A stretch of DNA of 64,000 nucleotides from Candidatus Saccharimonadales bacterium. GTDB taxonomy: Bacteria; Patescibacteriota; Saccharimonadia; Saccharimonadales; SZUA-47. The DNA lies in the NCBI GenBank assembly GCA_038211855.1, contig JBBQVE010000002.1:6332-70331 (forward strand), given 5' to 3'. How positions within the stretch are numbered: the stretch's first letter is position 1; each line of letters starts with the position of its first letter. Below the pieces are notes generated by a model that did no database searches, was not told the origin of the DNA, and saw only the letters and a list, made by a program, of their open reading frames with translations. The translations under genes and the position numbers were made by a program. Positions 15,241-58,307 of the stretch are shown piece after piece.

Positions 15241-15290
15241 TTTCTCTAGTCTTGTGTTCAATTTATAATTTTGATGTTAAAGTAGTAGCG

Positions 15291-16244
15291 ATGCTAAAGC
15301 TTACAAAAACAAAAAACTGGCTGCTTGGAGCCTTGTTGTTGGCGGTTATACCTGTTGCACTTACCGTCTCAGGACACAAAGTCTATGCAGAAGATACTAA
15401 CAGCTATCCGTGGATTCGACCCGTTAGTTGGCTTGACCAAGTCATTTCAAGCCCAACTGGGGGTACTGGACAGGGGCACATCGGCGTAGACCTTTTGTTA
15501 GGTAGTTCTAATCAGTCGTACGATCCTTGTCATAATAGCTCCGATCCATTTATATCTGGCTGCCAAAACTCAGGGGGATATTACAAGGTACTAAAGTACA
15601 ATTCATCGGGCAATGAATTTCCATATGGAATATTTATCGACAATACAAACGGAAGTGCCAGCCACTACTGGGCCAAGCGCACCGGAGTAGTGTTTCTAGA
15701 AATCTATCCTTATTCTATTCCCGTAAGTGCACCACTTTCTGGGTATCGGCTTGATCCAGGTGCTTGTGGTTGTGCGGTGTACGGTGGCCTAGAGGTGGTT
15801 ATCAAAGACTGGAAGGGTTCGTCCGCTCCGGGAAGTGCTTATTCAGCAAATATTGGTACTTTACGAACCACGAGTTTGACTGAACCTGACGTCGGCAAGA
15901 TGAATGGTTACATTAAGCGAAATGGTACAAATGTGGGTGCAGGCATCGCCAACACTGATTGGTTCGGACAGGACAGCAGTACGGCGCGTTCTAGCGGTGG
16001 ATTCCCGGTCTTTAGTTTTGCATCTTGGCCAACAAACGCCGATGGGTATTACACGTCGGGACCGGTGCTAAAGGGCAATTATCATTTTTATGTAACAGAC
16101 AATGGTCCGACAAATACTGGTCCAACGCGTAAAGTTGAATGCTTCGGCATTGGTGTCAAAGGAACTTCAGATAGAATGGATATGGAGCTGACGCAGCAAC
16201 ACTTTGGTCTGGATGGACCCGGCCGCCAATGTTATGATCGCTAG
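15291..16244 (+). CDS. secreted hypothetical protein
   Basis: The start is taken at MLKLTKTKNWLLGALLLAVIPVALTVSGHKVYA, which is a signal peptide. The annotated upstream extension overlaps the uxs-like gene. No recognisable catalytic motif. Confidence 0.6.
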   Translation: MLKLTKTKNWLLGALLLAVIPVALTVSGHKVYAEDTNSYPWIRPVSWLDQVISSPTGGTGQGHIGVDLLLGSSNQSYDPCHNSSDPFISGCQNSGGYYKVLKYNSSGNEFPYGIFIDNTNGSASHYWAKRTGVVFLEIYPYSIPVSAPLSGYRLDPGACGCAVYGGLEVVIKDWKGSSAPGSAYSANIGTLRTTSLTEPDVGKMNGYIKRNGTNVGAGIANTDWFGQDSSTARSSGGFPVFSFASWPTNADGYYTSGPVLKGNYHFYVTDNGPTNTGPTRKVECFGIGVKGTSDRMDMELTQQHFGLDGPGRQCYDR

Positions 16245-16246
16245 CC

Positions 16247-17113
16247 CTAGGCTTGATTGGCTAAGTTAAGTAAGTAATGACCATATCCGGATTTTTTGAG
16301 TGGTTCAGCGATGTGGATGAGTTGATCGCGAGTTATAAAGCCTTGTCGGAAGGCGGTTTCTTCAATGCAGCCTATCTTGAGGCCTTGACGATCTTCGATG
16401 ACTTGTACGAACTGACTTGCTTGATTGAGGCTGGCAAACGTGCCCGTGTCGAGCCAAGCTGTGCCGCGGTCTAGCAGCTGTACTTTTAACTTTCCAGCTC
16501 GCAAATAGGCATTGTGGATTTCTGTAATTTCTATTTCGCCACGTTCACTCGGCTTGACGTTCTTAGCGATTTCTACGACGTCATTATCAAAAAAGTAGAG
16601 ACCAGGAATGGCATAGTTTGATTTTGGTTTAAGTGGCTTTTCTTCGATGCTGACGACTTTCATATTTTCATCAAACTCAACAATGCCGTAGCGTTCCGGA
16701 TCCGCAACTTGATACCCAAAAATTACCCCGCCGTCTGGGTTGTTTGCCGCCACAATTTTTTCATCAATATCACTGCCGTAGAAGATATTATCACCAAGTA
16801 CCATAGCGACTTTGTCATCACCAATAAAGTCTGCGCCAACAATGAATGCATCGGCCAATCCACGCGGTGTATCTTGGATTTTATAGGTAAAATTACAACC
16901 GATGCGATCACCACTGCCCAAGAGTTGCTCGAAGCGAGGTAAGTCCTGCGGTGTACTGATAATGAGGATATCGCGGATCCCAGCGCCCATGAGTGTAGAA
17001 AGCGGGTAATAAATCATCGGCTTATCGTAGAGCGGGATTAACTGTTTACTTACGCCAAGTGTAATCGGATAAAGACGCGTACCCGAACCACCTGCTAAAA
17101 TGATACCTTTCAT
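16247..17113 (-). CDS. rfbA: glucose-1-phosphate thymidylyltransferase
   Basis: MKGIILAGGSGTRLYPIT and 288 aa. Last gene of the rfbBCDA run. Confidence 0.93.
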   Translation of the reverse strand: MKGIILAGGSGTRLYPITLGVSKQLIPLYDKPMIYYPLSTLMGAGIRDILIISTPQDLPRFEQLLGSGDRIGCNFTYKIQDTPRGLADAFIVGADFIGDDKVAMVLGDNIFYGSDIDEKIVAANNPDGGVIFGYQVADPERYGIVEFDENMKVVSIEEKPLKPKSNYAIPGLYFFDNDVVEIAKNVKPSERGEIEITEIHNAYLRAGKLKVQLLDRGTAWLDTGTFASLNQASQFVQVIEDRQGLKIGCIEETAFRQGFITRDQLIHIAEPLKKSGYGHYLLNLANQA

Positions 17114-17964
17114 GTGGCTAACTCCTTCTTTATATATTCGCCAAGATCCTGCTTCCAGTCATGCGGAGTGAAACCGGCGGCTTTGATTTTACTGAGGTCG
17201 AGGCTGCTTTGGAGGGGTCGTGGGGCTATGTTTGCTTTGCCAGCAAAATACTCAGCGGTTGTCGTATCGGTCACTGTGTTTTTTAGACCGGCCTGACTAT
17301 AAATCTCACGTGTGATGTCAGCCCAAGAGGCGGCCTCGCCCTCGTTGGAGACGTTGTAACTGCCAAACGGTGCACTGGTCGTCAGCAAGTGGTCAATAGC
17401 CGAGACAAGTGTTGAGGTGAAGGTCAAGCGACCGATTTGATCTGAAACAACTGTAGGATTCACGCCTTTATTGCCGAGCTCGTACATGGTACGGACGAAG
17501 TTCTTGCCTTCACCGATGACCCACGAAGTCCGCAAAATATAAAACTTTGGAGCAAGAGAGACAATGAGATCGCCGGCTGCTTTGGTTGAACCATAGACAG
17601 ATAGTGGTGAAAATGCCTCATCTTCGAGATGATTATGCACAGTACCATCAAACACATAGTCAGTTGAAACATGCACCAGTATCGCATCGTATTCGGCGGC
17701 AGCTGCCACGAGATTGGCGACGGCATCGGCATTGACTGCCCAGGCCATGGGTCGACCTTCTAAAGTTTCAGCACCATCAACGTTCGTGTAAGCGGCGGCA
17801 TTGAGAATGACTTTTATGCCGCTCCAATCATAGGCAGCCACGGAATCTTTGTCAGTAATATTAAGCTCATCGATGTCAGCCCATTTCGCACGAGGGTACT
17901 GCGCTTGTAAAGCCAGACCTAATTGGCCTTTTGCACCGATGATAAATACTTCTTCGTCGTTCAC
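17110..17964 (-). CDS. rfbD: dTDP-4-dehydrorhamnose reductase
   Basis: 284 aa. IIGAKGQLG, STDYVFDG, YGSTKAAGD. Confidence 0.9.
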   Translation of the reverse strand: MNDEEVFIIGAKGQLGLALQAQYPRAKWADIDELNITDKDSVAAYDWSGIKVILNAAAYTNVDGAETLEGRPMAWAVNADAVANLVAAAAEYDAILVHVSTDYVFDGTVHNHLEDEAFSPLSVYGSTKAAGDLIVSLAPKFYILRTSWVIGEGKNFVRTMYELGNKGVNPTVVSDQIGRLTFTSTLVSAIDHLLTTSAPFGSYNVSNEGEAASWADITREIYSQAGLKNTVTDTTTAEYFAGKANIAPRPLQSSLDLSKIKAAGFTPHDWKQDLGEYIKKELAT

Positions 17965-37382: not shown

Positions 37383-37529
37383 GATTAATAGGTCCTACTG
37401 TAAACACATCTGAACATATATTCGTCTTATAGTACATCTCTTCTGTGCATAAATGTCTGTGAGTTTGCTTACAGCGCGGTTCTTATCAAAAAATTTACAA
37501 TGGTAGTGCTAATACAAGGAGTGGTCACA

Positions 37530-37649
37530 ATGGCAGATATGAAAGACAAAATGAAAAATAAGATGAATGAGGCCGACAACAAGGCACATGAACTAAAGGG
37601 AAGAATCGAGCAAAAGCGGAAGGATATGTCGAAAGACAAATCTATTTAG
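37530..37649 (+). CDS. candidate 39-aa Lys/Met/Asp-rich small protein ([39 protein letters not shown])
   Basis: AAGGAG lies 8 nt upstream of the ATG. Below the ORF-track cutoff. Its composition is reminiscent of small general-stress proteins. Confidence 0.4.
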
Positions 37650-37719
37650 CTCATTTGGGATGAGTGTTTTTGGAGGAGGGCCTGCGAGGGTCCTCTTCTT
37701 TTTATTGGGGGTATATACT

Positions 37720-37924
37720 AGATGCAATGACGAAAAAAGTGGTGGCCAACGCCAGCGCATCGTGATTGCTCGGATCATGCTCAAAAACGCCCCGATATTA
37801 CTACTCGATGAGGCAACTAGCGCACTTGATAGTGAAAGTAAAAAGTCATTCAAGAAGCATTGGCTGTGCAGATGAAAAAACGTACAGCTTGGGCACGCCA
37901 GTCCGGCGGCTTTATGGAGACTTG
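37720..37924 (+). pseudogene. relic of an ABC-exporter nucleotide-binding domain (signature through D-loop only, then frameshifted and truncated)
   Basis: The frame of 37660-37875 reads [37 protein letters not shown] (ABC signature, Walker B, D-loop). The next frame continues [12 protein letters not shown], as expected after the D-loop. There is no Walker A and no TM domain. Confidence 0.55.
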
Positions 37925-37934
37925 AAAAGCCGCT

Positions 37935-39098
37935 CTACAAGCCCTTAGTCGTGGCGAATAAGTGTTCTTCGGTTTCGTGGCGGCGGATGAGCTGATGCTG
38001 CCCGTTCGGACGCACGATGACTTCACCAGCGCGCAGTCTGAAATTGTAGTTGTGAGAATTAGCACGTGAGTGTGCACCAGCGTCGTGAATTACCATAAGA
38101 TCACCGGGTTGAATGCTCGCAGGCAATGAACGGTCTTTAAACATTTTGTCAGTATTGGCACACATCGAGCCGACGACATGCATGGGCCGAGTTAAATCAC
38201 CATCACGACCAAGAATATTGATGTGATGATAAGCCGCTGTGACGGTTGCGAGCCGAGCCATATTGTTGATAGAAGTATCGATTTGCAAATATGGTGCGTG
38301 AGATTCAATGATTCCGTGGGTCACACGTGTAAGTAAGTAGCCATTTGGGCCGGTAATAAATCGTCCATTCTCTGTCAGTATTGGTACACCTAGATGACCA
38401 AGCTCCGATTCAATGGCTTGTCCGACGGCAGCAACATCAACCGGATCTTCCTCTGGTGAATAGTTGATGCCGAGTCCACCACCAACATTAATAAAGCTGA
38501 TTTCTAGGCCGAATAATGTTGAAGCTTTATCGGCAAGTTCGCGCATCATTTTAGCCGTTTCAGCAAAAGAATCAGGCTCTTTTTCATTGCTGACCACCAT
38601 CGTATGAAGACCAAGCCGTTCGACACCGCCACGCCTCATTGCCTGTAAGGCATCCAAGACGTGCTCTTCAGTGTCACCGAACTTAGATTGCTGAGGATCA
38701 CCGATGATATCGTTGCCTTGTTTGATAGCACCTGGGTTATAACGGATGGCCATACTGGTTGGCAAGCCACCGAGAGCCTGTGCTACCTGTTCAACGTAGG
38801 GAAGTTTATCAACATTAATAATCGCCCCTAACCCACTTGCCAACTGGTAATCCCGGTCGGGTGTATTATTTGAGCTATAAAAAATTCCGTGACCACCGAC
38901 CTCAGTTTGATCTACCATCATAAGTTCACCACGAGAACTGCAGTCAAAACCCATGCCTGTGTCATATATAATGCGTAGAATTTCTGGCGTAGGAGTAGCC
39001 TTGACTGCAAAATGATTGACGTATTGAGGACTCCAGCGAAAGGCTTCATGTAAGGCTTTGGCGTTGGTTTCTATACCAAGCTGGTCATAGACAAACAC
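37935..39098 (-). CDS. PLP-dependent Orn/DAP/Arg-family decarboxylase (diaminopimelate decarboxylase-like); the conserved N-terminus is interrupted upstream by an in-frame TAA
   Basis: INVGGGLGINY, ENGRFITGP, VVGSMCANTDK, HDAGAHSRANSHNYNFR. The intact ORF starts at GTG 39098; the upstream interruption is described in the findings. Confidence 0.8.
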   Translation of the reverse strand: MFVYDQLGIETNAKALHEAFRWSPQYVNHFAVKATPTPEILRIIYDTGMGFDCSSRGELMMVDQTEVGGHGIFYSSNNTPDRDYQLASGLGAIINVDKLPYVEQVAQALGGLPTSMAIRYNPGAIKQGNDIIGDPQQSKFGDTEEHVLDALQAMRRGGVERLGLHTMVVSNEKEPDSFAETAKMMRELADKASTLFGLEISFINVGGGLGINYSPEEDPVDVAAVGQAIESELGHLGVPILTENGRFITGPNGYLLTRVTHGIIESHAPYLQIDTSINNMARLATVTAAYHHINILGRDGDLTRPMHVVGSMCANTDKMFKDRSLPASIQPGDLMVIHDAGAHSRANSHNYNFRLRAGEVIVRPNGQHQLIRRHETEEHLFATTKGL

Positions 39099-39937: not shown

Positions 39938-40816
39938 TTACACCAGATAATGCGTGATAGAAATCATGAGGCTAAATATAAGCAGTGCAAGCAATGAAAA
40001 ACCAAATATCTGTTTGCCCCATTTATCATTATTTTTTGTCGAGAAGCCTTTAATAGCCAGCCGTAGCCATAGCGCACAGACCGTCAGCATGACACCCAGG
40101 TATATATAGCCTGCGTAGTGAAATGCGGTGAGTGAACAGGCTGCGAGTGCAAAAAGGACTGTATAAAACAGTATGTGTCGTTTTGTGGCGGCGATACCTC
40201 GTTTGGCTGGCAATATGGGCAAACCAGCTTCCGTATAGTCTTTAAGTCGGTAGATGCCGATAGCGTAAAAATGTGGCATTTGCCAAGCGGCCATAATCAA
40301 AAATAGGAGGAGGGCCAATACATCAAAGCGGCCAGTCACGGCGCAGTAGCCGGCCACCAGCGAGGTGGCGCCAGATATACTACCAACGAGCGTACCGTGC
40401 ACGGAGGTGCGCTTAAAATAGCCGTAGAGCACTACATAAGAAAAGATACCGACTGCGCCTATTATGACCGTCAGGGCGTTCGTGTAAGCGGCCAACAGCC
40501 AGAATCCTAGTACACCAAGTACGCAGGCGTATGTAATCGCGGCGGCTATAGAAATCTCACCCGTGACAAGCGCGCGATTTTTGGTGCGGTCCATCTTTCT
40601 ATCAATCCCGCGATCCAAATAATTATTGAACACACAGGCGCTGGCAATAATCAGCGCGGTCCCCGTAAGCGTGGCTAGCAACTTCCAGAAATCCACATGG
40701 CCTTTACTCGCCAGCAAAAAGCCGGCCGCCGCCGTCATGAGATTACCACGGATAATACCGGGCTTTGTCAGCTGGTAGTAATGCCGAAAGGTGTCGATTG
40801 TCTGATTTCCTTTCAC
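39938..40816 (-). CDS. cyoE: protoheme IX farnesyltransferase (heme O synthase)
   Basis: UbiA-fold protein, NNYLDRGIDRKMDRTKNRALV, nine TM segments. Last gene of the cyo operon (ATGA overlap). Confidence 0.9.
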   Translation of the reverse strand: MKGNQTIDTFRHYYQLTKPGIIRGNLMTAAAGFLLASKGHVDFWKLLATLTGTALIIASACVFNNYLDRGIDRKMDRTKNRALVTGEISIAAAITYACVLGVLGFWLLAAYTNALTVIIGAVGIFSYVVLYGYFKRTSVHGTLVGSISGATSLVAGYCAVTGRFDVLALLLFLIMAAWQMPHFYAIGIYRLKDYTEAGLPILPAKRGIAATKRHILFYTVLFALAACSLTAFHYAGYIYLGVMLTVCALWLRLAIKGFSTKNNDKWGKQIFGFSLLALLIFSLMISITHYLV

Positions 40817-41475
40817 GGTGTAACGGTAAATGTACCTGCCACACTGTCATCAAGGTGATCGTGAAACGTATAAGTTCCTGCCTGGTTGAGTGTTAAAGTT
40901 TTTGGGTATTTCTTTTGAACGGATAACTCTTCGACGCCACCATATATTTCGTGGTGAGGATGTGGCCCAAACGCAACATCGCGTACTACCGTATCTTCGT
41001 TCACAAACGTGAGTGTATCGCATAATTTCGCCTGTGTACTCTGGGGGCTCACTTTGCCATCCTTGAAAGTAACGATGTGACTCGCTTTAATCTCTTGGCA
41101 GGCACCAGTCTGAACGCCGTTGACCTGTGAGATGCCCTCATCCTGCGAGAGCTTTTTGGTGACTTGTGCCGCTGTTGGTGACATAGCGTAACGTAAGTTA
41201 TTCATAATAAATATTGAGCCTAAGACGACCACCAGAATGGTACCAACTGTAAAAACAAAGAAAGTGATGTTGTAGAGCGGCTTTGGCCCCCGGCCAAGGT
41301 GCAAGAAGAAGAATATTTGAACCGCCATCTGCAGCACCGCAAATCCCAGAATCGTTGCCAGCAGTGTAGTACCGGTGACGGACTTATTCACCACGAGATA
41401 ATACGGAATAGCCGTGAATACTAAAGATAAAAAGAATCCAAATATGTAGGATTTTAATGACCCGTGTTCGCTCAT
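40813..41475 (-). CDS. cyoD: cytochrome bo-type quinol oxidase subunit IV fused to a C-terminal extracytoplasmic cupredoxin-like domain of about 125 aa
   Basis: Residues 1-91 carry three TM helices with the CyoD pattern (SYIFGFFLSLVFTAIPYYLV, LQMAVQIFFFLHLG). Residues 92-220 are soluble and beta-rich (HIVTFKDGKVSP...LTFVNEDTVVRDVAFGPHPHH...GTYTFHDHLDDSVAGTFTVTP). Confidence 0.8.
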   Translation of the reverse strand: MSEHGSLKSYIFGFFLSLVFTAIPYYLVVNKSVTGTTLLATILGFAVLQMAVQIFFFLHLGRGPKPLYNITFFVFTVGTILVVVLGSIFIMNNLRYAMSPTAAQVTKKLSQDEGISQVNGVQTGACQEIKASHIVTFKDGKVSPQSTQAKLCDTLTFVNEDTVVRDVAFGPHPHHEIYGGVEELSVQKKYPKTLTLNQAGTYTFHDHLDDSVAGTFTVTP

Positions 41476-42062
41476 ACGAAGGCCCTCAAGTACACAAAGG
41501 TAAAGATAAATATCCAGACAATATCCAAAAAGTGCCAGAACAGGCTGAGCAAAGTCAATTTGCGCACCATATGAGTGCTAAGACCGCGCTTTTTGACAAA
41601 TATCAAGGTTATTGCCATCCATAGTAAGCCCGAGATGATGTGTAGCCCGTGCGTCCCAACCAGAGCGAAGAATGACGAAAAGAAGGCATTGCTGCTGATG
41701 GTGTGTCCGGCACGGATAAACTCAGTAAATTCCTTTAGTTCCAGTCCCAAGAAGGATATGCCCAAGAGAAATGTCAGGCCAAACCAAGAAAAAACTTGCT
41801 TCTTGTTGCCAGCACGAGCAGCAATCATAGCGACGCCACATGTAAAGCTGCTCGTCAGTAGAATGAGCGTTTCGGCCAGGGCGAGGTGAAGGCTAAAGAG
41901 ATCGCGGCCCGTCGGACCACCGAGCGTATTGTCGTGTAGCACTGCATAGACCGCAAAGAGCACGGCGAACATCAGAAGGTCGGTCATTAAGTAGACCCAA
42001 AAACCGAATAGCACCCGCTCGGTTGCAGCTTCTTCGTGCGCAGCTTCCGTCACTGCTACCAT
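41472..42062 (-). CDS. cyoC: cytochrome bo-type quinol oxidase subunit III
   Basis: Five TM helices, FGFWVYLMTDLLMF, LHIISGLLWM. The start is taken at MVAVTE, overlapping the cyoB stop by 7 nt. Confidence 0.88.
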   Translation of the reverse strand: MVAVTEAAHEEAATERVLFGFWVYLMTDLLMFAVLFAVYAVLHDNTLGGPTGRDLFSLHLALAETLILLTSSFTCGVAMIAARAGNKKQVFSWFGLTFLLGISFLGLELKEFTEFIRAGHTISSNAFFSSFFALVGTHGLHIISGLLWMAITLIFVKKRGLSTHMVRKLTLLSLFWHFLDIVWIFIFTFVYLRAFV

Positions 42063-44146
42063 GTGCGCCACCGTTTGTTCCTCGCAATGTCGAGGGCCCA
42101 TGCCACTACAATCTTAATAAATTCCCATAAGCCCATGTCTTCATCGGAGTCTGCTCCCTTCGCTCCGTGCAAAGCATGCATTTTCTTGCTGCTTGCAACG
42201 GCAAGTTTTTCTACCTCAGCAGCCGGTATGGTATATTCGGTATTTTCATCAAACGTACGCATAATCGTGAATATAATAATCCCAAGAAATCCTACAACAG
42301 CTAGCCAGTTTACGTGCCACACAAACCCAAAGCCGACCAAAAAAGCGAAGCCTGAAATGTAGATGCCTGATGCCGTGCTCTTGGGCATATGGATGTCTTC
42401 ATAGATGACTTTTGGTATGCCTTTTTGCTTCATGTCGAGGAACGCATCACGACTGGTCACTTCCGGAATGACGGCAAAGTTATAAGACGGCGCAGGTGAG
42501 GGGACGGACCATTCCAAGGTTCGTCCATCCCAGGGGTCGCCAGTGGTATCGATCAGTCGTCTTTTTTGCATGAAACTGGCGATGATTTGGATGATTTGGA
42601 GCGCTAGTCCGGAGGCAATGACGAGCCCACCAATAAACGCCATGATGAAAAAGGGCTGGTAATGGGTGGAAGCATCATAGTGGTCGAGCCTTCTGGTGGC
42701 ACCCATCAGTCCAAGCACATAGAGCGGCGTAAAGGCCATCAGAAAGCCAATGAACCAGCACCAGAACGCATACTTTCCGATACGCTCGTTCAGTCGGAAT
42801 CCAGCAATTTTCGGGAACCAATACGATATGCCCGCAAAGATCCCAAACAACACACCGCCAACAACCATCGTGTGAAAGTGCGCCACCAAAAACAGACTGT
42901 TGTGCAACTGAAAATCAACTGGTGGGACGGCCAACATCACACCCGCCATACCGCCAACTGCAAACAAACCCACGAAGCCCATGAACCACAACATTGGCGT
43001 CGAGAACTTTATTTTGCCTCTGTACATGGTGGCAATCCAGGTAAAGAATAAGACCGACGTTGGAATGGCGATAATTATGGTCATGAGCCCAAAAAAGGCA
43101 CTGACATCAGCACTGGAACCCATTGTAAAGAAGTGGTGGAGCCAGACCGACAGCGCGAAGGCTGAGACGCCGATCATACCGACAACGTTGGACATATAAC
43201 TGGCCGAGGCCTTTCGACTGAAGGTAGATACGATTTCTGAAAACACGCCAAACGATGGCAACATTAAGATATACACTTCAGGGTGTCCCCACATCCAAAT
43301 GAGGTTGGTGTACATCATGGCGTTGCCACCAAGATTCGTCGTGAAGAAATGCGCGCCAAAATAGCGGTCCAAGAACATCAGCAGCAACGCCATCGTGAGT
43401 AATGGAAAAACAGTGACCGCCATGATCATGCTACACAGTGATCCCCAGGTAAAGAGTGGCATTTTGCGGAGTGTCATGCCGGGCGCGCGCATTCGGAGGA
43501 TTGTCATAATAAAGTTAATCGCACCAAGCGTTGTGCCAACACCAGAAATCAGCAGGCTCCACAGCCAATAATCCACCCCCGTTCCTGGGCTGAATTGTAT
43601 TCCTGACAGTGGAGCAACCGCCAACCAGCCAGTCGCGGCGTATTGCCCACCGAGTACAAAGAACATGTTCACCATGACAACACCAGCGATAAATAACCAG
43701 AACCCTAGCGTATTCAAAAATGGCGATGCCAGGTCGCGCGCACCAATCTGCAAAGGAACAATGTAGTTTATCAGTCCGAATATCAAGGCCATCGCCACAA
43801 AGAACACCATGATGTTGCCGTGGGCCGTAAAGATCTGTTGGTAGTGGTCCGCCGAGAGGATGCCGTGAGAAGATCCCGACGATAAAGCTTGATGGAGCCA
43901 CATAATGAGCACATCGAGGCCGCCGCGCAGGAGCATGAAGCCACCAACCAGGAAGTACATAATGCCAATCTTTTTTGGATCAACAGAGGTTAGCCATTCA
44001 TTCCACAGCCATTTCCAGCGTTTCATACGGGTGATGACAATCACCGCAAACAGTATCATAGCTCCAAAGCCGAGGGTTCCCGCAATGGTCACCCACTCAT
44101 GCGGTAAGGCGTTGGCGTCGAGCCGACCTAAAAGAAATTCTCTCAT
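42056..44146 (-). CDS. cyoB: cytochrome bo-type quinol oxidase subunit I (heme-copper oxidase)
   Basis: 696 aa. WMWGHPEVYILMLP (CuB His), WLHHFFTMG, LVAHFHTMVVGG (heme ligands). Confidence 0.95.
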   Translation of the reverse strand: MREFLLGRLDANALPHEWVTIAGTLGFGAMILFAVIVITRMKRWKWLWNEWLTSVDPKKIGIMYFLVGGFMLLRGGLDVLIMWLHQALSSGSSHGILSADHYQQIFTAHGNIMVFFVAMALIFGLINYIVPLQIGARDLASPFLNTLGFWLFIAGVVMVNMFFVLGGQYAATGWLAVAPLSGIQFSPGTGVDYWLWSLLISGVGTTLGAINFIMTILRMRAPGMTLRKMPLFTWGSLCSMIMAVTVFPLLTMALLLMFLDRYFGAHFFTTNLGGNAMMYTNLIWMWGHPEVYILMLPSFGVFSEIVSTFSRKASASYMSNVVGMIGVSAFALSVWLHHFFTMGSSADVSAFFGLMTIIIAIPTSVLFFTWIATMYRGKIKFSTPMLWFMGFVGLFAVGGMAGVMLAVPPVDFQLHNSLFLVAHFHTMVVGGVLFGIFAGISYWFPKIAGFRLNERIGKYAFWCWFIGFLMAFTPLYVLGLMGATRRLDHYDASTHYQPFFIMAFIGGLVIASGLALQIIQIIASFMQKRRLIDTTGDPWDGRTLEWSVPSPAPSYNFAVIPEVTSRDAFLDMKQKGIPKVIYEDIHMPKSTASGIYISGFAFLVGFGFVWHVNWLAVVGFLGIIIFTIMRTFDENTEYTIPAAEVEKLAVASSKKMHALHGAKGADSDEDMGLWEFIKIVVAWALDIARNKRWRTW

Positions 44147-45048
44147 TCATGCTCCGTATGCAGGCCGTGCGACCCGCTGTATTTAACGACCGTATTCGCG
44201 TACAGGTTTGATTCAGCAGTGGCGAACACTGCTGCAGGATTGCTCTCACTGGGGGTAAGCAGCTTTTCATAGGCTGCTGCATCGAGCGTTGCGGAAGACT
44301 GTTTTACGCTCTGCACCCACTGGTCAAAATCCTGCCCTGAACTGGCACGAGTCGTGAACTGCATGCCGGCAAAACCAGCACCATTAATTTCGGTAGATCG
44401 GCCTGTGTAGTCGCCGAGCGAGTCAGCTTCAAGATTCAGTCGGTTAACGTGTCCGGTCATCGCGTACAATTGACCACCTAAATGGGGAATCCAGAATGAA
44501 CTCATCGGGGTTTCATCAGCCGTGAGGTCAAATTGCAGTGGCGTACCGACCGGGACTTGGATAAAGTTAACCGTCGCAATGTTTTGTTCAGGATAGATAA
44601 AAAGCCACTTCCAGCGCAGCGCAATCACTTGGATTGTTAATGGCTTTACAGCGCTCGCAATCGCCTTCTGCGGAGCAAGCTGATGCGCGGCGGGCCACAT
44701 AATTGAGACCAGTAGTAGCATCGTAATTGAGGGAAGCGCCCAGATCGTGAATACGAGCGATTTGTCATGATGGGGCTGAGGGTCATGGACCGCTTTTTGA
44801 TTCGACTCACGGTATTTCCAGGCAAAAAAGAAAAACAAAAACAGGGCTGGCACTGCAATTTCTAATAATATAAGGACTGTACGCAGCATAAGGCGGTATT
44901 CTTCAGTCGCTATCAAACCCTTCGGATGCAGCAGCGCCACATCAGTACCTCGCAACAGTATAGTGATAAGCAATCCTAGCCCAGCGAGTATAACAAAAGG
45001 GAGCCATACTGGATTGCTTGAAGTAAGTTTGCTTTTGCTTTTTGACAT
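44143..45048 (-). CDS. cyoA: quinol oxidase subunit II (lacks CuA ligands)
   Basis: Two TM segments plus a cupredoxin domain. SSFWIPHLGGQLYAMTGHVNRLNL...STEINGAGFAGMQF parallels E. coli CyoA and has no CxxxC-H-M CuA site. Confidence 0.9.
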   Translation of the reverse strand: MSKSKSKLTSSNPVWLPFVILAGLGLLITILLRGTDVALLHPKGLIATEEYRLMLRTVLILLEIAVPALFLFFFFAWKYRESNQKAVHDPQPHHDKSLVFTIWALPSITMLLLVSIMWPAAHQLAPQKAIASAVKPLTIQVIALRWKWLFIYPEQNIATVNFIQVPVGTPLQFDLTADETPMSSFWIPHLGGQLYAMTGHVNRLNLEADSLGDYTGRSTEINGAGFAGMQFTTRASSGQDFDQWVQSVKQSSATLDAAAYEKLLTPSESNPAAVFATAESNLYANTVVKYSGSHGLHTEHE

Positions 45049-49944: not shown

Positions 49945-51585
49945 ATGAGACAGTTTGGCGAACTTGGGCTGGCTGGACCAATGCTTGATGAGCTCATTCG
50001 AAACGAGCAAAGTAACACAGCACAAGAGCTTGAACAAATCCGTCAACTTGACCCAGCCCTCCAACCAGATTCGGTAAATGATGCAGCACATCCCTCAGAA
50101 GCTACGACGCCAAACATGGACGAGGCAATCAAAAAGCTGGAAGCCGACGGCGGCATAGATGCACACAAAAATCGCTACGGCCCAAATGGTGGCACGTGTC
50201 CCTTTTTGAGCACGATGGGTAAAGCTGGTCTGGATCTTGTTGAGAGCCTTGAAAAAGTGAAGGCCACACCAACGCCGGCCGAAGGCAAGTCATTAGAGGA
50301 ATTAGTCGCCGAAAAGAGGGCAGCAAAAGCTGTTGCCAAAGCCGCCAAAGAAGCCGCAGAGACCAAAGAGACAGCAGAAATTATTGTTCATCAGGAAAGA
50401 GCTACAGAAGTTGCGGCAGCAATTATTCCAAGGCCAGAGACAGGACTGATAAAGCGGGAGGAACCATTCATCATCGAAGTGGTAAAGCGACGTACTGAAA
50501 GGTCTGTGTTGTCCGAGGCGATTGTTATGCCAGAAGCTGCCTTGGCGGTGGCACAAGAGATTCAGGGCAGAATTGTAGAGCCTGTCATCTCATCTCCTGT
50601 CGTAACAAATGTAGAAGTCGCACCGAAAAAGCTCGAAGACTTAAAAGTTACAAAAAAGATTCCAGCTAGGCCAATCATCGTTGCGATTCGAAAGCCAGTT
50701 TCGCGAACGATATCTAAGACTATAGTGAAAAGCGCCATTACTTCAGCGCAAAAACCAAAAGTTTTACTAACTAGGAACGAAGTGCGGACGATTAAAAAAC
50801 CGACGGTGCGAGTGCTCAAGAATCTTCATCAGGCAGTTCGCACTTATGAACCGGTTATTGAAGTAGCGCCTCAGGCCATTTTAGAGTTTAATCAACCGGC
50901 TGTTTATAGGGTAGATGAAGCACCTCAGCAGGTAGCCCTAGAGCAGGAAGCCGATGTTACTCCCCAAATTCTGTCCTTTGTGCCAGTGGCGAGCATTGAA
51001 AAAGATAATCAGACGGCTGCTCCCCAGCAAGTGCAAAGTGAGGTGCTTGCGTTAGGGCCACTGCAGAAAGATGGTCTTGCGCTACACGAAAGTGTGATAA
51101 TCCATACTCCTGCTATCACTGAAGAAATAAGTACTGCTTATGTAGATAAGTTGGAGCAAGACTTTACTTTAACCTTAGAAAACAAACAAAAATTCACTAT
51201 AGCGATTGAAGGTATCTCGCAGTTAATTCAAGAACTCGTCACAGAATCAGCAGAAGCAGTGCCGCTGGTTAAGGTAAAAGAAGTCGAAGTTCTATGCAAA
51301 AAACTTTTCGACAATATGGGTTTTAAACCAAGCGATGAAATGATTAAATCAATCATCCGTGACCTTAAAGCAAAAGTCGTTAAGTCGGCCGAGCAGGAAG
51401 ATAAAATATCCATGGATATTCTCAACTATCGGGGCACTAGTGAACATCGGGCAAAAGTCGCGGCAACATTACAATCACATCTCTTGAAAATGGCTAGTCA
51501 AAGAAGAGGTCGTTTTCATGACATCAGTAAAATTATTGTCCGTCATCTTCACGACTCGTTCTTTGGTGAGGCGTTCGCTGCCTAA
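49945..51585 (+). CDS. hypothetical 546-aa protein, largely low-complexity and predicted disordered
   Basis: A long ORF starting 3 nt after the FAD-oxidase stop. Rich in A/E/K/V/P/Q with no recognisable domain. Confidence 0.6.
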   Translation: MRQFGELGLAGPMLDELIRNEQSNTAQELEQIRQLDPALQPDSVNDAAHPSEATTPNMDEAIKKLEADGGIDAHKNRYGPNGGTCPFLSTMGKAGLDLVESLEKVKATPTPAEGKSLEELVAEKRAAKAVAKAAKEAAETKETAEIIVHQERATEVAAAIIPRPETGLIKREEPFIIEVVKRRTERSVLSEAIVMPEAALAVAQEIQGRIVEPVISSPVVTNVEVAPKKLEDLKVTKKIPARPIIVAIRKPVSRTISKTIVKSAITSAQKPKVLLTRNEVRTIKKPTVRVLKNLHQAVRTYEPVIEVAPQAILEFNQPAVYRVDEAPQQVALEQEADVTPQILSFVPVASIEKDNQTAAPQQVQSEVLALGPLQKDGLALHESVIIHTPAITEEISTAYVDKLEQDFTLTLENKQKFTIAIEGISQLIQELVTESAEAVPLVKVKEVEVLCKKLFDNMGFKPSDEMIKSIIRDLKAKVVKSAEQEDKISMDILNYRGTSEHRAKVAATLQSHLLKMASQRRGRFHDISKIIVRHLHDSFFGEAFAA

Positions 51586-51878
51586 GTAGGCTTTGGTATG
51601 TGCCCACCTTCTTGTAGGAGTGTAGTCGTCCAGCGTCTGAGTTCCGCTACTTTTGCCGGGTCGATTTTCTTTGGATCGATCTTAAATTCTCTAAAGCAGT
51701 AGCCAACGCCTTCTCTGACATGTCCTGAATAACCATGCATTCCCATATCAAGGCCGGCAAAATCTTCGTAGTCCATTAGTTCCAAAAGCAAATCTGCCGT
51801 CGCAAGGTCTTCAGGGGGTACGACGATTTCAGGCATACCTTCTTTTTCTGGTGTCATGAGTCTCATTATAAGGCACAC
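51582..51878 (-). CDS. hypothetical small acidic protein (about 91-98 aa)
   Basis: ORF with a GTG start at 51878. The ATG at 51857 is preceded by TATAAT at a 7-nt spacing. No recognisable motifs. Confidence 0.5.
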   Translation of the reverse strand: MCLIMRLMTPEKEGMPEIVVPPEDLATADLLLELMDYEDFAGLDMGMHGYSGHVREGVGYCFREFKIDPKKIDPAKVAELRRWTTTLLQEGGHIPKPT

Positions 51879-51888
51879 GCCCGCCTAA

Positions 51889-52188
51889 TTACAAAGTGAC
51901 AGATTTTTGCGTAACAGCAATAATGTCTCCCGCATCGAGCCAGCGGTAGGGGCAATTGCTGCAGGAATCAATCATTGTTTGGCCACCGTTATAAGGGATT
52001 TTTCCCATTGGATTGCCGCATGAAGGGCAGGTGATGGCGGTTTGGGTCTGCTCGACAAATTTCACGATACTTACAGAAATATCTACGGCTTGCTTTACTT
52101 CGCCGGCGCCGTTCTGCACGGCATACAGCTGATTATCGACAATCTCCCAGCTGATGAGATGTCCGCTCAGCGAGGAAGATCCATACAT
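51889..52188 (-). CDS. zinc-ribbon protein (CPxC...CxxC, TFIIB-type ribbon pattern)
   Basis: CPSCGNPMGKIPYNGGQTMIDSCSNCPYRWLDAGDI matches the CPxCg...id.C..C.g.WLD pattern. Confidence 0.55.
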   Translation of the reverse strand: MYGSSSLSGHLISWEIVDNQLYAVQNGAGEVKQAVDISVSIVKFVEQTQTAITCPSCGNPMGKIPYNGGQTMIDSCSNCPYRWLDAGDIIAVTQKSVTL

Positions 52189-52223
52189 AGCTTAAGTGTC
52201 ATACAGATGAGTCTATGACTCAC

Positions 52224-52763
52224 TTATTTTGGCATTGTCGCGTAAACACCGAGCCAGTTTTGGGCGATTTCTCTCTGAGCAGTCGCAAGGTCTATCACTC
52301 CGTCACAGACTTCCTTATGCAGGTAGTTTTCGGTTTGATCTTTTTGGTGAAAGCCTGGGAGCGGAGCTGCCAGTTCAGGCCAAAGATTGGCGATATCATT
52401 CGAGCCTCCCAGTTCGAGGCTGACTAGATGATCAACCTCATACTGTCCGCTCGCATGCGACGTAATTCCATATTCCGTGTAGTCTTTTTTCTTCTCTGAA
52501 TCAGGTACATTGCGTACTTTTGAGGAGTAGCCGGCTGTGCAGATTTCAGCTTTTGTGGCCGTCGAAAGGATTGCCCCAGGCGTGCAAGTAGCCTCGGGCA
52601 GGGCATTATGCGCTACGCATCCGTCGGTTTTTGTTTGCGCTCCAATCGGCACCGATGACTCCGGTGGCAGTGAGCTTGGAACGCTAGATTCAGTTCCTAA
52701 TACTCCTTTGGTACTGTTCGGTTGGATCGAATGACGCGAGCCAACAAAGACGACTCCTGCCAC
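52224..52763 (-). CDS. membrane-anchored or secreted HNH (His-Me finger) nuclease-like protein
   Basis: YEVDHLVSLELGGSNDIANLWPE ... HQKDQTENYLHKEVCDG. The hydrophobic N-terminus continues upstream of the GTG at 52763. Confidence 0.65.
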   Translation of the reverse strand: MAGVVFVGSRHSIQPNSTKGVLGTESSVPSSLPPESSVPIGAQTKTDGCVAHNALPEATCTPGAILSTATKAEICTAGYSSKVRNVPDSEKKKDYTEYGITSHASGQYEVDHLVSLELGGSNDIANLWPELAAPLPGFHQKDQTENYLHKEVCDGVIDLATAQREIAQNWLGVYATMPK

Positions 52764-52873
52764 GACAAGTGCAACAACGACACCGGCAAAAATAAGCGCA
52801 CGCCGTTGCTTCTTTTCAATCGTTTGAATACGAGGTTCTTGTTCGATGCTTTAAGCTTACGCTTATTTTCCTA

Positions 52874-53551
52874 TTAAACGAACTTTGCAACTTTTCCGTG
52901 GAGCAGTTCTGTGCCTAGTTCAACAATCTGCGGCTCGGTCATGGCTTCTAAGTCACAGTTCTTGGTGGCTACAATCCGGTGCGCGATTTCTGAATAGTCC
53001 TTGTGAATCACTTCGAGCAGATGGTCCGAAGCGCGGCTTGATCCGGTGCCATGGCTCAAAATGACGATACGTTTGCTGGGCAGAATTTCTTTGATGACGG
53101 ACTCAAAATATTCGGCATCCTCGGGCGGGTTTGAGTCGTTGAAAGGGGCGGTTTTGGCCGTTTTATGCAAGATTCTGCCACTGCTCAGATTGGCGTGAAG
53201 GTGTACCAGCGATTCTGATTCGCTCCCAGGGTTATGACAAATAAATGCCTTGTGGTAGTCGATTGCCACGATGGCGCCTTCGACGGTATCTGCGTCATCA
53301 GATTCGGGTCGGGCGCTAAGACGCAGAAAGTGGCGCAGCTTAAGCACTTCTTCAATATCGAGCACTTTGTGATGAGAGCGTTCAAAGACTAAGCTGTGGT
53401 CATTGCGCGAAAAATGATAATTGCCGTTCTTCTCTTCGTGCAAGAGGCCAATAGAGGCCAACGCTGGAATCAGTTCAGACCATTCAATGTTTCGGGCAAT
53501 TGGATGAGCAGATAGTTCACTTAAAGTGTGAAGGTGTTTTTTTTCGGACAT
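52874..53551 (-). CDS. hypothetical two-domain protein (N-terminal HicA/YcfA-like pattern; C-terminal host-attachment/eRF1-like pattern)
   Basis: 225 aa. HPIARNIEWSELIPALASIGLL...HHKVLDIEEVLKLRHFL, then AIVAIDYHKAF...RIVILSHGTGSSRASDHLLEVI. The domain guesses are from memory only. Confidence 0.55.
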   Translation of the reverse strand: MSEKKHLHTLSELSAHPIARNIEWSELIPALASIGLLHEEKNGNYHFSRNDHSLVFERSHHKVLDIEEVLKLRHFLRLSARPESDDADTVEGAIVAIDYHKAFICHNPGSESESLVHLHANLSSGRILHKTAKTAPFNDSNPPEDAEYFESVIKEILPSKRIVILSHGTGSSRASDHLLEVIHKDYSEIAHRIVATKNCDLEAMTEPQIVELGTELLHGKVAKFV

Positions 53552-53631: not shown

Positions 53632-54642
53632 TTATGTTGCAGGAGCTGCTTCATCTTCGGTTGGTTTGATGGGTTTTTTACGGATAATCTCGTAGCGCTG
53701 ACCAGTCAGGGCAGATTCCATATAGTCATCGTTTAAGAGATTTACAAAGCGGTCTAAGGCTTTGCTGTCTTCGATAATAATAGCCCCAGAGTCATCTTGC
53801 ATTAGATCGATGTCTAGTTCTTCGGCGTGGTCAATAATCTCTTGTTGCTTGACGTGGTCAGTCTCGATTTTCTGTAGTTTGCGAATGACGTTCTTTTTGC
53901 CGGCAACCATCATCTGCAAGGTGACGCCTTCGGGGAAGCTGAGGCGGAAGTTGGTTTCGATAGCTTGGACCTTCTTTTCGGCGATACTCGCTTCCTTAGC
54001 GTCATAGCCAAAGAGCTGTTTGAGCCGAGTCTGACTAAAAACGTACATGTCTTGGTCGAGAATCAAAAGCTGGTTATCCATAGGAATACGCAGGGCGGCA
54101 TCGGCATCGAATGGCACGAACTTACCTTCCCGAATCATCCAGCCGGCTCGGCCACCCATGATATTGGCCTGCGGTAGCACTTTTACCAGATAAATTTGTT
54201 GCTTGATCGATGGGTGAGTCACGCGCGCAATGATGCCTTTCATACGCTTGAAGTCATGCTCTGCTTCCTTAAAGGTTTCGATTTCGTGTTCTTGAGTCTT
54301 GAGCCAGTTGATGGCTTCGCGGGCCTTTTCGACTTTGAACAACTGCGTGCGTTGCAAGACACCTTCTTCGTCTTCGGCCTCCTCAAACCCACGCACAACT
54401 AAGCCAGTTTCGGCACCATCTAAAATGTATTCCAGAATACCATCGATAAATAACGGCTCAAGGCTTTTGCGTAGTTCTTTGGCAATCGTCGTTTTATACA
54501 AAGTAAATTTCTTGCTCATCAAAAATAGGTCGATTTTAAGCTCGCCTTTGTACTGCACCAAATTATTTGCCCAAGCAAACACGTCGGTTTCTTTATAATT
54601 ATCAATGTCCGCCTGATCCGGCGCGAGAATATCTTCTGCCAT
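53632..54642 (-). CDS. DUF4868/KwaB-like protein (tentative)
   Basis: 336 aa. Its size and blocks LLILDQDMYVFSQTRLKQLFGYD and LLNDDYMESALTGQRYE resemble my recollection of DUF4868. AAAGG ribosome-binding site. Confidence 0.55.
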   Translation of the reverse strand: MAEDILAPDQADIDNYKETDVFAWANNLVQYKGELKIDLFLMSKKFTLYKTTIAKELRKSLEPLFIDGILEYILDGAETGLVVRGFEEAEDEEGVLQRTQLFKVEKAREAINWLKTQEHEIETFKEAEHDFKRMKGIIARVTHPSIKQQIYLVKVLPQANIMGGRAGWMIREGKFVPFDADAALRIPMDNQLLILDQDMYVFSQTRLKQLFGYDAKEASIAEKKVQAIETNFRLSFPEGVTLQMMVAGKKNVIRKLQKIETDHVKQQEIIDHAEELDIDLMQDDSGAIIIEDSKALDRFVNLLNDDYMESALTGQRYEIIRKKPIKPTEDEAAPAT

Positions 54643-55871: not shown

Positions 55872-56681
55872 TTAGCTAAGAAGCGCACCACCGTCAACGA
55901 CTATCTGGCTACCAGTCATATATGACGCCATGCCTGATGCCAGAAACAGCACAACTGTGCCGATTTCATCCGGCGTGCCCATCCGACGCATCGGCAGTTT
56001 TATCATAAAAGCTTCGGATTGTTTTTGTTTTTCTTGATCCGTCGCGGGCTGCATGGCGGCAACGCCGGGTGTCAGAATCCCGCCGGGAGCGACTGCGTTT
56101 ACCCAGATATTGTATGGCGCCAGTTCCAAGGCGGAGTTTTTAGTAAAGCCCCACACGCCATGTTTAGAGGCATCATAATGTGCTAAACCAACCATCGAAG
56201 GGTGAACGGCATCGATTGAAGTAATATTGACGATGCGTCCTCCCGTTCCCTGTTGTTTCATAACCTCGGCCACGTACTTGGTCGTCAAAAAGACGCTGCG
56301 CAGGTTCACGTGCATGACGCGTTCAAATTGTTCGGCCGTCATGTGTGCCACCGGTGCAGGTGGATAAATCCCAGCGTTATTTACAAGTATATCTACGGTA
56401 CCAAACTGTATCCGGCACTCGCCGATCATGTTGATGACTTGTTCTTCAGAGGAAACATCCGTCTCGATGGCTGCAGCAGTCCAGCCCTTATCGCTGAGTG
56501 CTTGAGCTGCTTGCCGGGCGGCCACTACATCGGTATCGGCTAGTAATACTTTGGCACCTGCTTCGGCCAACCGAGCAGCGATTCCGTAACCGATACCCTT
56601 CGCACCACCGGTGACGATCGCCGTTTTACCGTTCAAAGAAAGTAACTCAGTGATGCTGGGTAGTTGCTGCTGGCTCGCCAT
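55872..56681 (-). CDS. short-chain dehydrogenase/reductase (FabG/glucose-1-dehydrogenase-like)
   Basis: TGGAKGIGYG, NNAG, YDASKHG and 269 aa. Confidence 0.9.
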   Translation of the reverse strand: MASQQQLPSITELLSLNGKTAIVTGGAKGIGYGIAARLAEAGAKVLLADTDVVAARQAAQALSDKGWTAAAIETDVSSEEQVINMIGECRIQFGTVDILVNNAGIYPPAPVAHMTAEQFERVMHVNLRSVFLTTKYVAEVMKQQGTGGRIVNITSIDAVHPSMVGLAHYDASKHGVWGFTKNSALELAPYNIWVNAVAPGGILTPGVAAMQPATDQEKQKQSEAFMIKLPMRRMGTPDEIGTVVLFLASGMASYMTGSQIVVDGGALLS

Positions 56682-56939
56682 ATATCTCGATTCTAGGCTG
56701 TTTGAAACCTGCTTACGTAGGCCTCCAGTTAATACTAAAAGGAGATTAAAAGATGTACGTTATGTTGCAATCAAAACATTCGCGTTCGTTGCATTTTACG
56801 TTGGAAACACCGTCGTTTTTGTAGAAGGCGTAGATTTGCTTGTTCGTTAACTGAACGGCGCAAGTTGTATGCCTCCGTTTGAAGTGCAGATAGCCAGGTT
56901 CGTCGTATCTGAAATAATTCAGATAACCAAGAACATAGT

Positions 56940-57771
56940 ATGATAAAAATATCATCAAAAAAGTTCTCGCTCTTTTTATTACCTTTCTGGCTGTATGTGG
57001 CGGCTCGGCACATGCCGCAATCAACGGCTGGGTGGGTACACCTTCGCCGGCTGCTTGGTGGTCATTTAGCGCGCCAGCTACGACGCTATCTGGCGATATC
57101 ACCATCGAGCAGGACAATACGACGGGGTATACGCCACCTTCAACCTGCAATCTGATGATGGCACGCAGAAGGTTTGGCGTGCTGACATCGCCAACAAATC
57201 AACTGGCGCATCAACGCCTATCGGATCTATCAATGTGCCATCGGGTCACGGCAGAATCAAGCCGAACGTTTCAACCTTTCACGAAAGATTTAGCGGCAGT
57301 ACCGACAGCTGCGAAGCACTTGAACCGTCAAGGGCACGCCTCAACAACATAAAACTCGGCGGCAACCTGGGTAAGATTTATTCAACGACGGTCGGCACGG
57401 CCAGATTGTGTGCGAACTCAGGTGTAGCGACGGCCAATAATGAGTTTTTGAGCTGGTTCAATGCTGCCCCGGCTGTGGCAGCCACACCCGTAGTGGCGAC
57501 TCCAACGGTTATGCCGACGATTCAGACCCAAACAACGCCACAAGTAACCACCGTGCAGCCTGCAAATAAGGTTGTCGCAAAGCCGACTGCAGTTACAAAA
57601 CTCGTGGACAGTATCTTGCCAAGAGTGGGCGGTTTGATTGTGCTGCTTTCTGGGGGAGCATATGTTCTAAGAAAGAAGTCGCTCAGGCCGCCCAGACATG
57701 CTCAGTTCGATGCGCCACACGTCGTTGACCCGGCCGCTAGTGTGCCGAGCGATCCAACCCGCTTACCATAA
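56940..57771 (+). pseudogene. cell-surface protein (signal peptide ... LPRVG plus TM plus RKK anchor) split over three reading frames by two single-base shifts in homopolymers
   Basis: ATG 56940 gives MIKISSKK in frame 0. The signal peptide VLALFITFLAVCGGSAHA is in the -1 frame after the A6 run at 56957-56962. The protein-like sequence moves another -1 at GGGG 57124-57127. The C-terminal anchor lies in the frame of 57235-57771. Confidence 0.65.
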
Positions 57772-57779
57772 TGTGGGAT

Positions 57780-58307
57780 TTAGGCTTCGAGGAGGGCGCC
57801 GTTTTTCGAAACATCAGGTACGCAGCACATGCTCCGGTTAAAGCAGCAGGGTCTGCGTAAGCCATTTTTGAGCTTCGAAGCAGACACTACGATACGTTTT
57901 GCGCGAGTGTCGGCATTTGCGGTCGAACCGATCCAACGGAGCCATTCCCAGCGCGCCATTGGTGTGACGTCATCCCAGAGATGCTTTGTTTCAGGATTAG
58001 TAACGAGTCCGGTTTTTACATCTGTTGGGATAGCAGGTTCTGGCCAGTCTTTGGCGGCTTCAATGGATAGCTTGACGGTGTCGCCTACATTCGATTTTAT
58101 GGCTTTTTGCATCGTCTTATCGACATGTAGCCAGTGGCCACCACGCCCATCAGGTCCGAGAGCGTTCAAAAACTCAAAGTCGTCAATAGTCCCTTTAACC
58201 ATGACCTGTCCGCGTGAAGGGAGCTTAGCGCTGGCACTTTGCGGCAACTTGGCAATAATCCAAGTATTGATTTCAGAAAGTGTCGTTTCAAAGTTTATGG
58301 ATGGCAT
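57780..58307 (-). CDS. DUF1905 plus YdeI/OmpD-associated family protein
   Basis: N-terminal beta-barrel pattern (KLPSRGQVMVKGTIDDFEF) and C-terminal KRIVVSASKLKNGLRRPCCF. Confidence 0.72.
   Translation of the reverse strand: MPSINFETTLSEINTWIIAKLPQSASAKLPSRGQVMVKGTIDDFEFLNALGPDGRGGHWLHVDKTMQKAIKSNVGDTVKLSIEAAKDWPEPAIPTDVKTGLVTNPETKHLWDDVTPMARWEWLRWIGSTANADTRAKRIVVSASKLKNGLRRPCCFNRSMCCVPDVSKNGALLEA

Follow-up and report, generated by a model that had tools for sequence, protein, structure and literature searches.

A DUF3472 surface-protein gene spread over three frames in a Saccharibacteria-like genome is probably a recent pseudogene

Why should the pieces of what looks like one gene for a secreted protein lie in three successive reading frames, with both breaks falling on homopolymers? 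The question is posed by positions 56940-57771 on the plus strand of the window, that is, the whole 64,000-nucleotide stretch of DNA analysed here. A sequence-only reading of the window had offered four options: slipped-strand phase variation of a surface antigen, programmed ribosomal frameshifting, recent pseudogenisation, or two local sequencing errors. The third is supported by a missing domain core, by the homology of both remaining halves to one protein family, and by the broken frames. We put at about 85% the probability that the locus is a recently inactivated DUF3472 surface-protein gene in a Saccharibacteria-like genome; set against intact homologues, it has both a broken reading frame and a loss of conserved sequence. 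The features on which the argument turns are as follows.

56940..56963, plus strand: frame A, with the sole canonical start codon and the charged n-region (MIKISSKK) of the former signal peptide, ending in the A6 run
56963..57130, plus strand: frame B, with the signal-peptide core and the N-terminal strands of the DUF3472 domain (AINGWVGTPSPAAWW...ITIEQDNTTGY)
57124..57138, plus strand: deletion junction (GGGGTATACGCCACC), at which about 232 nt (3n+1) of ancestral sequence, or about 77 core residues, are missing
57127..57771, plus strand: frame C, with the C-terminal half of the DUF3472 domain, linker, anchor, RKK, tail and stop
57235..57771, plus strand: GTG ORF of 178 codons, a probable 3′ fragment of the decayed gene, present at NCBI as predicted protein P0001 on a contig of 103,986 bp
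about 57460-57615, plus strand: Pro/Thr/Val-rich linker in frame C
about 57625-57669, plus strand: hydrophobic anchor of 15 residues in frame C (VGGLIVLLSGGAYVL)

The sequence and its translations contain all the landmarks that had been described, namely three frames, the ATG at 56940 followed by MIKISSKK, the A6 run, and GGGG at 57124-57127. Translation from that ATG gives MIKISSKK and continues as an Arg-rich ORF of 71 codons closing at 57155, which has no homologues and which, beyond 56963, scores −22.3 bits over 56964-57155 in a frame-specific, three-periodic Markov model trained on 46 long ORFs of the window. The −1 frame, frame B, reads VLALFITFLAVCGGSAHA-AINGW... (in a longer reading, ...KKVLALFITFLAVCGGSAHAAINGWVGTPSPAAWWSFSAPATTLSGDITIEQDNTTGY...) and encodes at 56963-57016 a signal peptide with a hydrophobic core, a hydropathy peak at residues 6-14 and an AHA-A cleavage site. 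From the TAG at 56936-56938 to the hydrophobic core, frame B has no ATG, GTG or TTG, just as had been claimed. Translation of frame B could also begin at a non-canonical ATC (56951 or 56954), which would not rescue the gene. The two frames join at tcAAAAAAG (56955-56963), whose A6 run occupies 56958-56963 and which in frame 0 holds the heptamer A-AAA-AAG (56957-56963), again as had been read. Frame C is open from GGGG to the stop codon at 57769-57771; its 214 codons contain no stop, a result equalled by only one in 20,000 composition-preserving shuffles.

The Markov model ranks the frames in the same order along the gene, favouring B over 56964-57126 (+6.1 bits versus −16.4 and −11.4) and C over 57235-57771 (−9.6 versus −101 and −92). 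Even in the right frames the absolute coding score is near zero and below that of every clearly real gene of the window, and a simple segmentation labelled 56656-57888 as non-coding. With a GC content of 0.55 versus 0.47 in the window, the near-zero score makes this a compositionally atypical gene; atypical composition does not date the decay. A minus-strand ORF at 56746-57150 was considered as a gene in its own right and set aside, as it belongs to no family and has a poor coding score.

At the first break, a single added A would link MIKISSKK to VLALF... and yield a conventional signal peptide comparable to those of the homologues (MKNKFRSLALL..., MKIGRLALFISAF...), so that the loss of one base from an A7 run is the simplest reading. 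An exhaustive HMMER search with the frame-C translation against 1.84 billion cluster representatives returned, at E≤1e-3, the ORF itself and 33 distant homologues (34 proteins in all), the best of which, P0002, matches at E 8.8e-22 with 41% identity (phmmer). All eight homologues that we checked against Pfam carry DUF3472 (PF11958, E 1e-9 to 1e-14), scoring 36-55 bits against a cut-off of 24.8, and some have Big_7 or PA14 modules besides. Their usual layout is a signal peptide, DUF3472, a Pro/Thr-rich linker, a C-terminal transmembrane helix and a basic cytoplasmic tail. Both halves of the locus belong to this family: frame B residues 25-64 are 55% identical to P0002 residues 13-52 (BLASTP, E 3e-13), and 33 family members could be placed on frame C by tblastn, where a TFHERF motif lies at 57274-57291. 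These matches indicate that the locus descends from the DUF3472 family. As it stands it is not recognisable as an intact member: the core segment is absent and there is no model match above the gathering score, the reconstructed 277-residue protein finding nothing in Pfam at E≤0.1, PF11958 included, and the frame-C translation nothing at E≤0.01.

The same homologues redefine the second break, which had been taken for a slip from G5 to G4 in an otherwise complete gene. That account does not hold, as alignment with the homologues exposes a deletion of about 232 nt. By tblastn, P0002 residues 2-52 fall on window positions 56978-57130 in frame B (E 1.5e-9) and residues 133-240 on 57139-57462 in frame C, leaving 8 nt where P0002 has 80 residues (53-132). 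The missing length, about 77 codons plus 1 nt (3n+1), shows against each homologue that spans this part of the gene and is an estimate from proteins of only 41-55% identity; being 3n+1, it changes frame B to frame C. When the target is aligned with nine homologues (MAFFT), it alone is gapped, over about 90 columns that span the best-conserved part of the family (GYxGLQTxG...KIAIFSIWGA...GEGxGYSxRIxYPW...TY). Six of 19 invariant or near-invariant positions, as defined on a 32-sequence family alignment, are lost with it (Y68, G70, Q72, G112, W123 and Y129 in P0002 numbering). In the retained parts most conserved residues, including the TFHER glutamate, are kept, and two conserved positions have changed, V198 becoming A and F200 becoming L. 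In structural terms, the AlphaFold model of P0002 is a 16-strand beta-sandwich with pLDDT above 90 over about residues 30-210, and the deletion contains its strands 53-61, 66-76, 82-92, 96-99, 104-108 and 114-120 together with the start of 128-138.

Codon-level comparison with the P0002 gene (L008) places the junction within GGGGTATAC, which could reflect the loss of 232 nt at once or, in two steps, an in-frame deletion and then the loss of a single nucleotide. In either case a fifth G would not be expected to restore a functional domain, and the two single-base repairs together leave the core missing because about 77 residues have been deleted. A 4-nt GTAT microhomology at the junction is a mere guess from the P0002 gene and is not claimed here. 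A repeat search found no direct repeats around the locus to explain misassembly or deletion, and a 232-nt deletion without flanking repeats is not a typical assembly artefact.

Downstream of the domain, frame C runs through the linker into the anchor, RKK, a 30-residue tail and the stop at 57769-57771. The LPRVGG motif, hydrophobic segment and RKK that had been noted in this C-terminal part are indeed there, and the view of a surface-anchored protein is reasonable insofar as it implies a secreted, anchored ancestor; a sortase-type anchor is not. A sortase sorting signal was rejected as the motif reads LPRVG, which lacks the Thr that LPXTG has at position 4, as 30 residues follow RKK, and as the homologues have no LPXTG and instead end in a transmembrane helix and cytoplasmic tail. 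These features agree better with a type-I membrane anchor than with sorting by sortase.

The GTG ORF deserves a separate word, for it is the only piece of the gene present as a predicted protein (P0001) in the public protein collection. Matches to homologues start at frame C residues 4-16, and by phmmer the homology reaches 36 codons upstream of the GTG at 57235. No SD-like sequence precedes that codon; Shine-Dalgarno strength is uninformative here, many intact genes of the window having none. The ORF is thus best read as the 3′ fragment of the decayed gene and probably not as a separate gene. A word-indexed protein search with the target returned only this 178-residue ORF itself, and a search of the same kind with the family alignment gave two already known homologues and no closer relative. 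Scanning metagenome contigs with the reconstructed protein found nothing, and no orthologue of the target was found in the genomes or metagenomes scanned.

What the intact protein may have done can be approached through its relatives of known structure. A profile of the homologues matches PDB chains 8PN3, 8PMU and 8PN5 ("DUF3472 domain-containing protein") at E ~1e-8 and 4QHW at 7e-7, and a Foldseek search with a modelled homologue lists the same entries first, followed by glutamic peptidases, among them scytalidoglutamic peptidase (eqolisins) and neprosin. The three chains are HC7, described in PMC13003899 as a di-glutamate mucinase of Bacillus cereus, for which PMC12518865 and PMC13003899 cite Narimatsu et al. 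(Nat Catal 2024) as the primary paper. HC7 is the only biochemically characterised DUF3472 member. In the HMMER alignment the invariant Glu of TFHER aligns with the catalytic Glu200 of HC7, the residue mutated in the E200A crystal structures; the window still encodes this Glu at 57283-57285, and the GLQ and GEG motifs are gone. On this alignment, a plausible ancestor is an extracellular hydrolase related to glutamic peptidases in type and anchored in the membrane. Its intact relatives P0002-P0034 form a subgroup with a signal peptide, a C-terminal transmembrane anchor and the invariant TFHER Glu. They may be surface hydrolases of the glutamic type that cleave glycoproteins or peptides, and these membrane-anchored proteins could merit study in their own right; the window copy is probably dead.

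Taken together, the preferred reading, a recent pseudogene, would run as follows. The ancestor probably encoded a signal peptide, a DUF3472 beta-sandwich of about 220 residues, a Pro/Thr-rich stalk, a C-terminal transmembrane anchor and a short cytoplasmic tail. One lesion would be the internal deletion at 57124-57138, which would have cost the 16-strand sandwich six complete strands and some of a seventh, with the GLQ...AIFSIW...GEG...W...Y core, and also shifted the frame. The other would be the base lost in the A run at codons 7-8, separating the start codon from the signal peptide, so that the ATG would now give a 71-residue nonsense peptide, and nothing at the locus would need to work. 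The order and exact size of these events, their reality as mutations rather than read errors, and the absence of expression are what we infer. The decay appears to be recent, since the retained frames are still free of stops. Open frames and kept conserved residues fit a very recent event; a truncated variant still in use would fit them too.

The surroundings fit a gene whose loss would be tolerated. The pseudogene locus lies between a divergently transcribed SDR gene (55872-56681) and a DUF1905/YdeI gene, and the wider neighbourhood includes a KwaB-like defence protein, a PNPOx-like protein and an MFS transporter in addition to the DUF1905/YdeI protein. The SDR gene product is 70% and 66% identical to those of two Candidatus Saccharibacteria MAGs. 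A 20-kb locus of the first, OY970151.1 (L001), also carries the bPH-domain gene and the cytochrome oxidase operon found in the window, with up to 76% amino acid identity. Neither of these two nearest Saccharibacteria MAGs has a homologue of the target at the corresponding place, and the gene order around the SDR gene differs; the gene therefore seems dispensable and accessory, in a variable stretch. Other features of the window are listed here.

53632-54642, minus strand: KwaB-like protein (Kiwa anti-phage system; PF16162 E 5.5e-14, PADLOC KwaB E 6.5e-19)
39938-45048, minus strand: cytochrome oxidase operon (COX1 42056-44146, COX3 41472-42101)
51892-52191, minus strand: Zn-ribbon ORF (PF13453)
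52227-52850, minus strand: ORF of 179-208 codons, with an HNH-like motif (EVDHLVSLELGGSN) after a hydrophobic N-terminus
37597-37930, plus strand: relic of an ABC-transporter ATPase gene, inside a 550-bp gap between ORFs (37395-37938)

The ORFs adjoining the KwaB-like gene have no match to a KwaA model, so that the arrangement is not a canonical kwaA-kwaB pair. The cytochrome oxidase operon has its counterpart in OY970151.1 at 13210-17923. A further 1.3 kb of low coding score on the minus strand, 51585-52877, which holds the Zn-ribbon and HNH-like ORFs, resembles the target locus in its atypical composition. A plus-strand ORF of 23 codons (56753-56824, MYVMLQSKHSRSLHFTLETPSFL) lies in the intergenic region that separates the SDR gene from the pseudogene; it is preceded by a strong AAGGAGA Shine-Dalgarno sequence and may represent a leader peptide or a remnant, or have arisen by chance. 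Neither the Rfam nor the tRNA scan returned a match in the window, and a scan for promoters and terminators gave nothing above chance, with one sigma-70-like site at 56891-56918.

Which of the other explanations could still account for the broken frames? The one that survives best, and that we nevertheless regard as unlikely, is that both breaks are consensus or sequencing errors, the true tracts being A7 and G5 and the real gene a 277-codon frame that represents an in-frame deletion variant. Both breaks do lie on homopolymers, one base at each restores a single frame, and no stop codons have accumulated; in addition, the related MAG L001 bears an MFD isolate label, which we take to be linked to a long-read sequencing project. 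Against this, the window holds more than 200 comparable or longer homopolymers (112 A/T runs of at least six and 130 G/C runs of at least four) and no intact gene is broken at any of them, G4 is short for a homopolymer error, and the repaired protein, without about 77 core residues and six conserved positions, fails the DUF3472 model. As the repair leaves the core absent, the gene would still be degenerate even if both breaks were sequencing errors.

The quality of the assembly can be judged from the rest of the window, which is dense in long ORFs. Overlapping ORF pairs on the same strand were checked as possible split genes; eight of the nine ORFs involved are essentially full-length Pfam domains of distinct families, the ninth (15165-16244) has no Pfam match, and none of the nine is half of a split gene. 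The assembly is not indel-prone. It had been stated that no other gene of the window is frameshifted, which is right for the intact genes and fails for the truncated ABC-ATPase relic, the only other frame break found in the window. Of the 137 positions of the ABC_tran model (PF00005), 37597-37872 covers the final 30 alone, and the expected continuation lies in another frame after an A5 run (37840-37844). This relic is the second decayed gene in the window. One-base losses from A runs are thus confined to two loci with gross structural damage, which is the pattern of neutral decay rather than of random read error, and the indirect evidence favours real lesions.

Second, and considerably less probable than sequencing error, is slipped-strand phase variation, in which slippage in the A tract at codons 7-8 would turn a surface protein ON or OFF within the population and the assembly would have caught the OFF state. 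In its favour, the gene is one for a secreted, membrane-anchored protein and has the tract at its 5′ end, the classical position of contingency tracts. Tracts with high switching rates in known contingency loci are longer than A6 or A7, so that the one here is short by comparison, and among 112 A/T runs of at least six it is not distinctive; no paralogous family of such genes exists within the window. More damaging, the ON (A7) frame would still meet the 3n+1 junction, and its product would be without the domain core.

A slimmer chance again attaches to the idea that the locus is still expressed, with ribosome or polymerase slipping at A6 and at G-GGG, and a product of 277 residues that is anchored in the membrane and whose DUF3472 sandwich is deliberately shortened. 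If true, a Saccharibacteria-like (CPR) bacterium would have a surface protein that is recoded twice.

The specific mechanism that had been proposed, a programmed −1 ribosomal frameshift of the dnaX type at A-AAA-AAG, repeated at G-GGG to give a full-length product, fares worst. The heptamer does fit X-XXY-YYZ in frame 0, and the GGG codon could re-pair one base back within G4. However, AAAAAAG occurs 45 times on the two strands of the window taken together, and 11 copies of A-AAA-AAG stand in the same X-XXY-YYZ phase inside its intact, well-scoring genes, so the heptamer itself carries no information. The 17 nt before it (56940-56956, ATGATAAAAATATCATC) contain a single G and no SD-like or GGAG-like element, the nearest predicted hairpin begins 26 nt downstream rather than the 5-9 nt of known dnaX-type cases, and the slip site lies just 6 codons past the start. 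What the second site holds is the junction of a deletion rather than a conserved recoding signal, the inefficiencies of two obligatory shifts would multiply, and the 33 homologues are ordinary single-frame proteins, neither the two-frame architecture nor the shift site having been found among those retrieved. With in-phase copies in intact genes, no stimulators and a trans-frame product that lacks the conserved domain core, we give this proposal the least credence of all.

As a probable recent pseudogene, the locus can be compared with known systems. Two homopolymer frame breaks can mimic recoding or phase variation, and distant homologues expose the deletion scar; for the rest, gene loss of this kind, still under way in a reduced Saccharibacteria-like genome, is routine and an ordinary phenomenon. 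With the dnaX-type −1 frameshift it shares the heptamer sequence and phase, but that system has an SD-like element and a stem-loop, whereas here there are no stimulators, there is no conservation, and the product would be defective. Its likeness to a sortase LPXTG signal consists in an LP motif, a hydrophobic stretch and basic residues, yet the sortase signal sits at the extreme C-terminus and this locus has 30 more residues after RKK. HC7 offers the closest comparison among DUF3472 proteins, to which both retained halves of the locus are homologous; HC7 has carbohydrate-binding modules where the closest homologues of the locus have a C-terminal transmembrane anchor instead, and the window copy is without about 77 core residues, split over three frames and below the family model. 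With bacterial pseudogenes formed by deletion and homopolymer indel, the locus shares intact homologues elsewhere, a broken frame and a lost conserved segment; its retained frames are still open and a second relic with the same types of lesion lies in the same window, and from such pseudogenes it shows no material difference.
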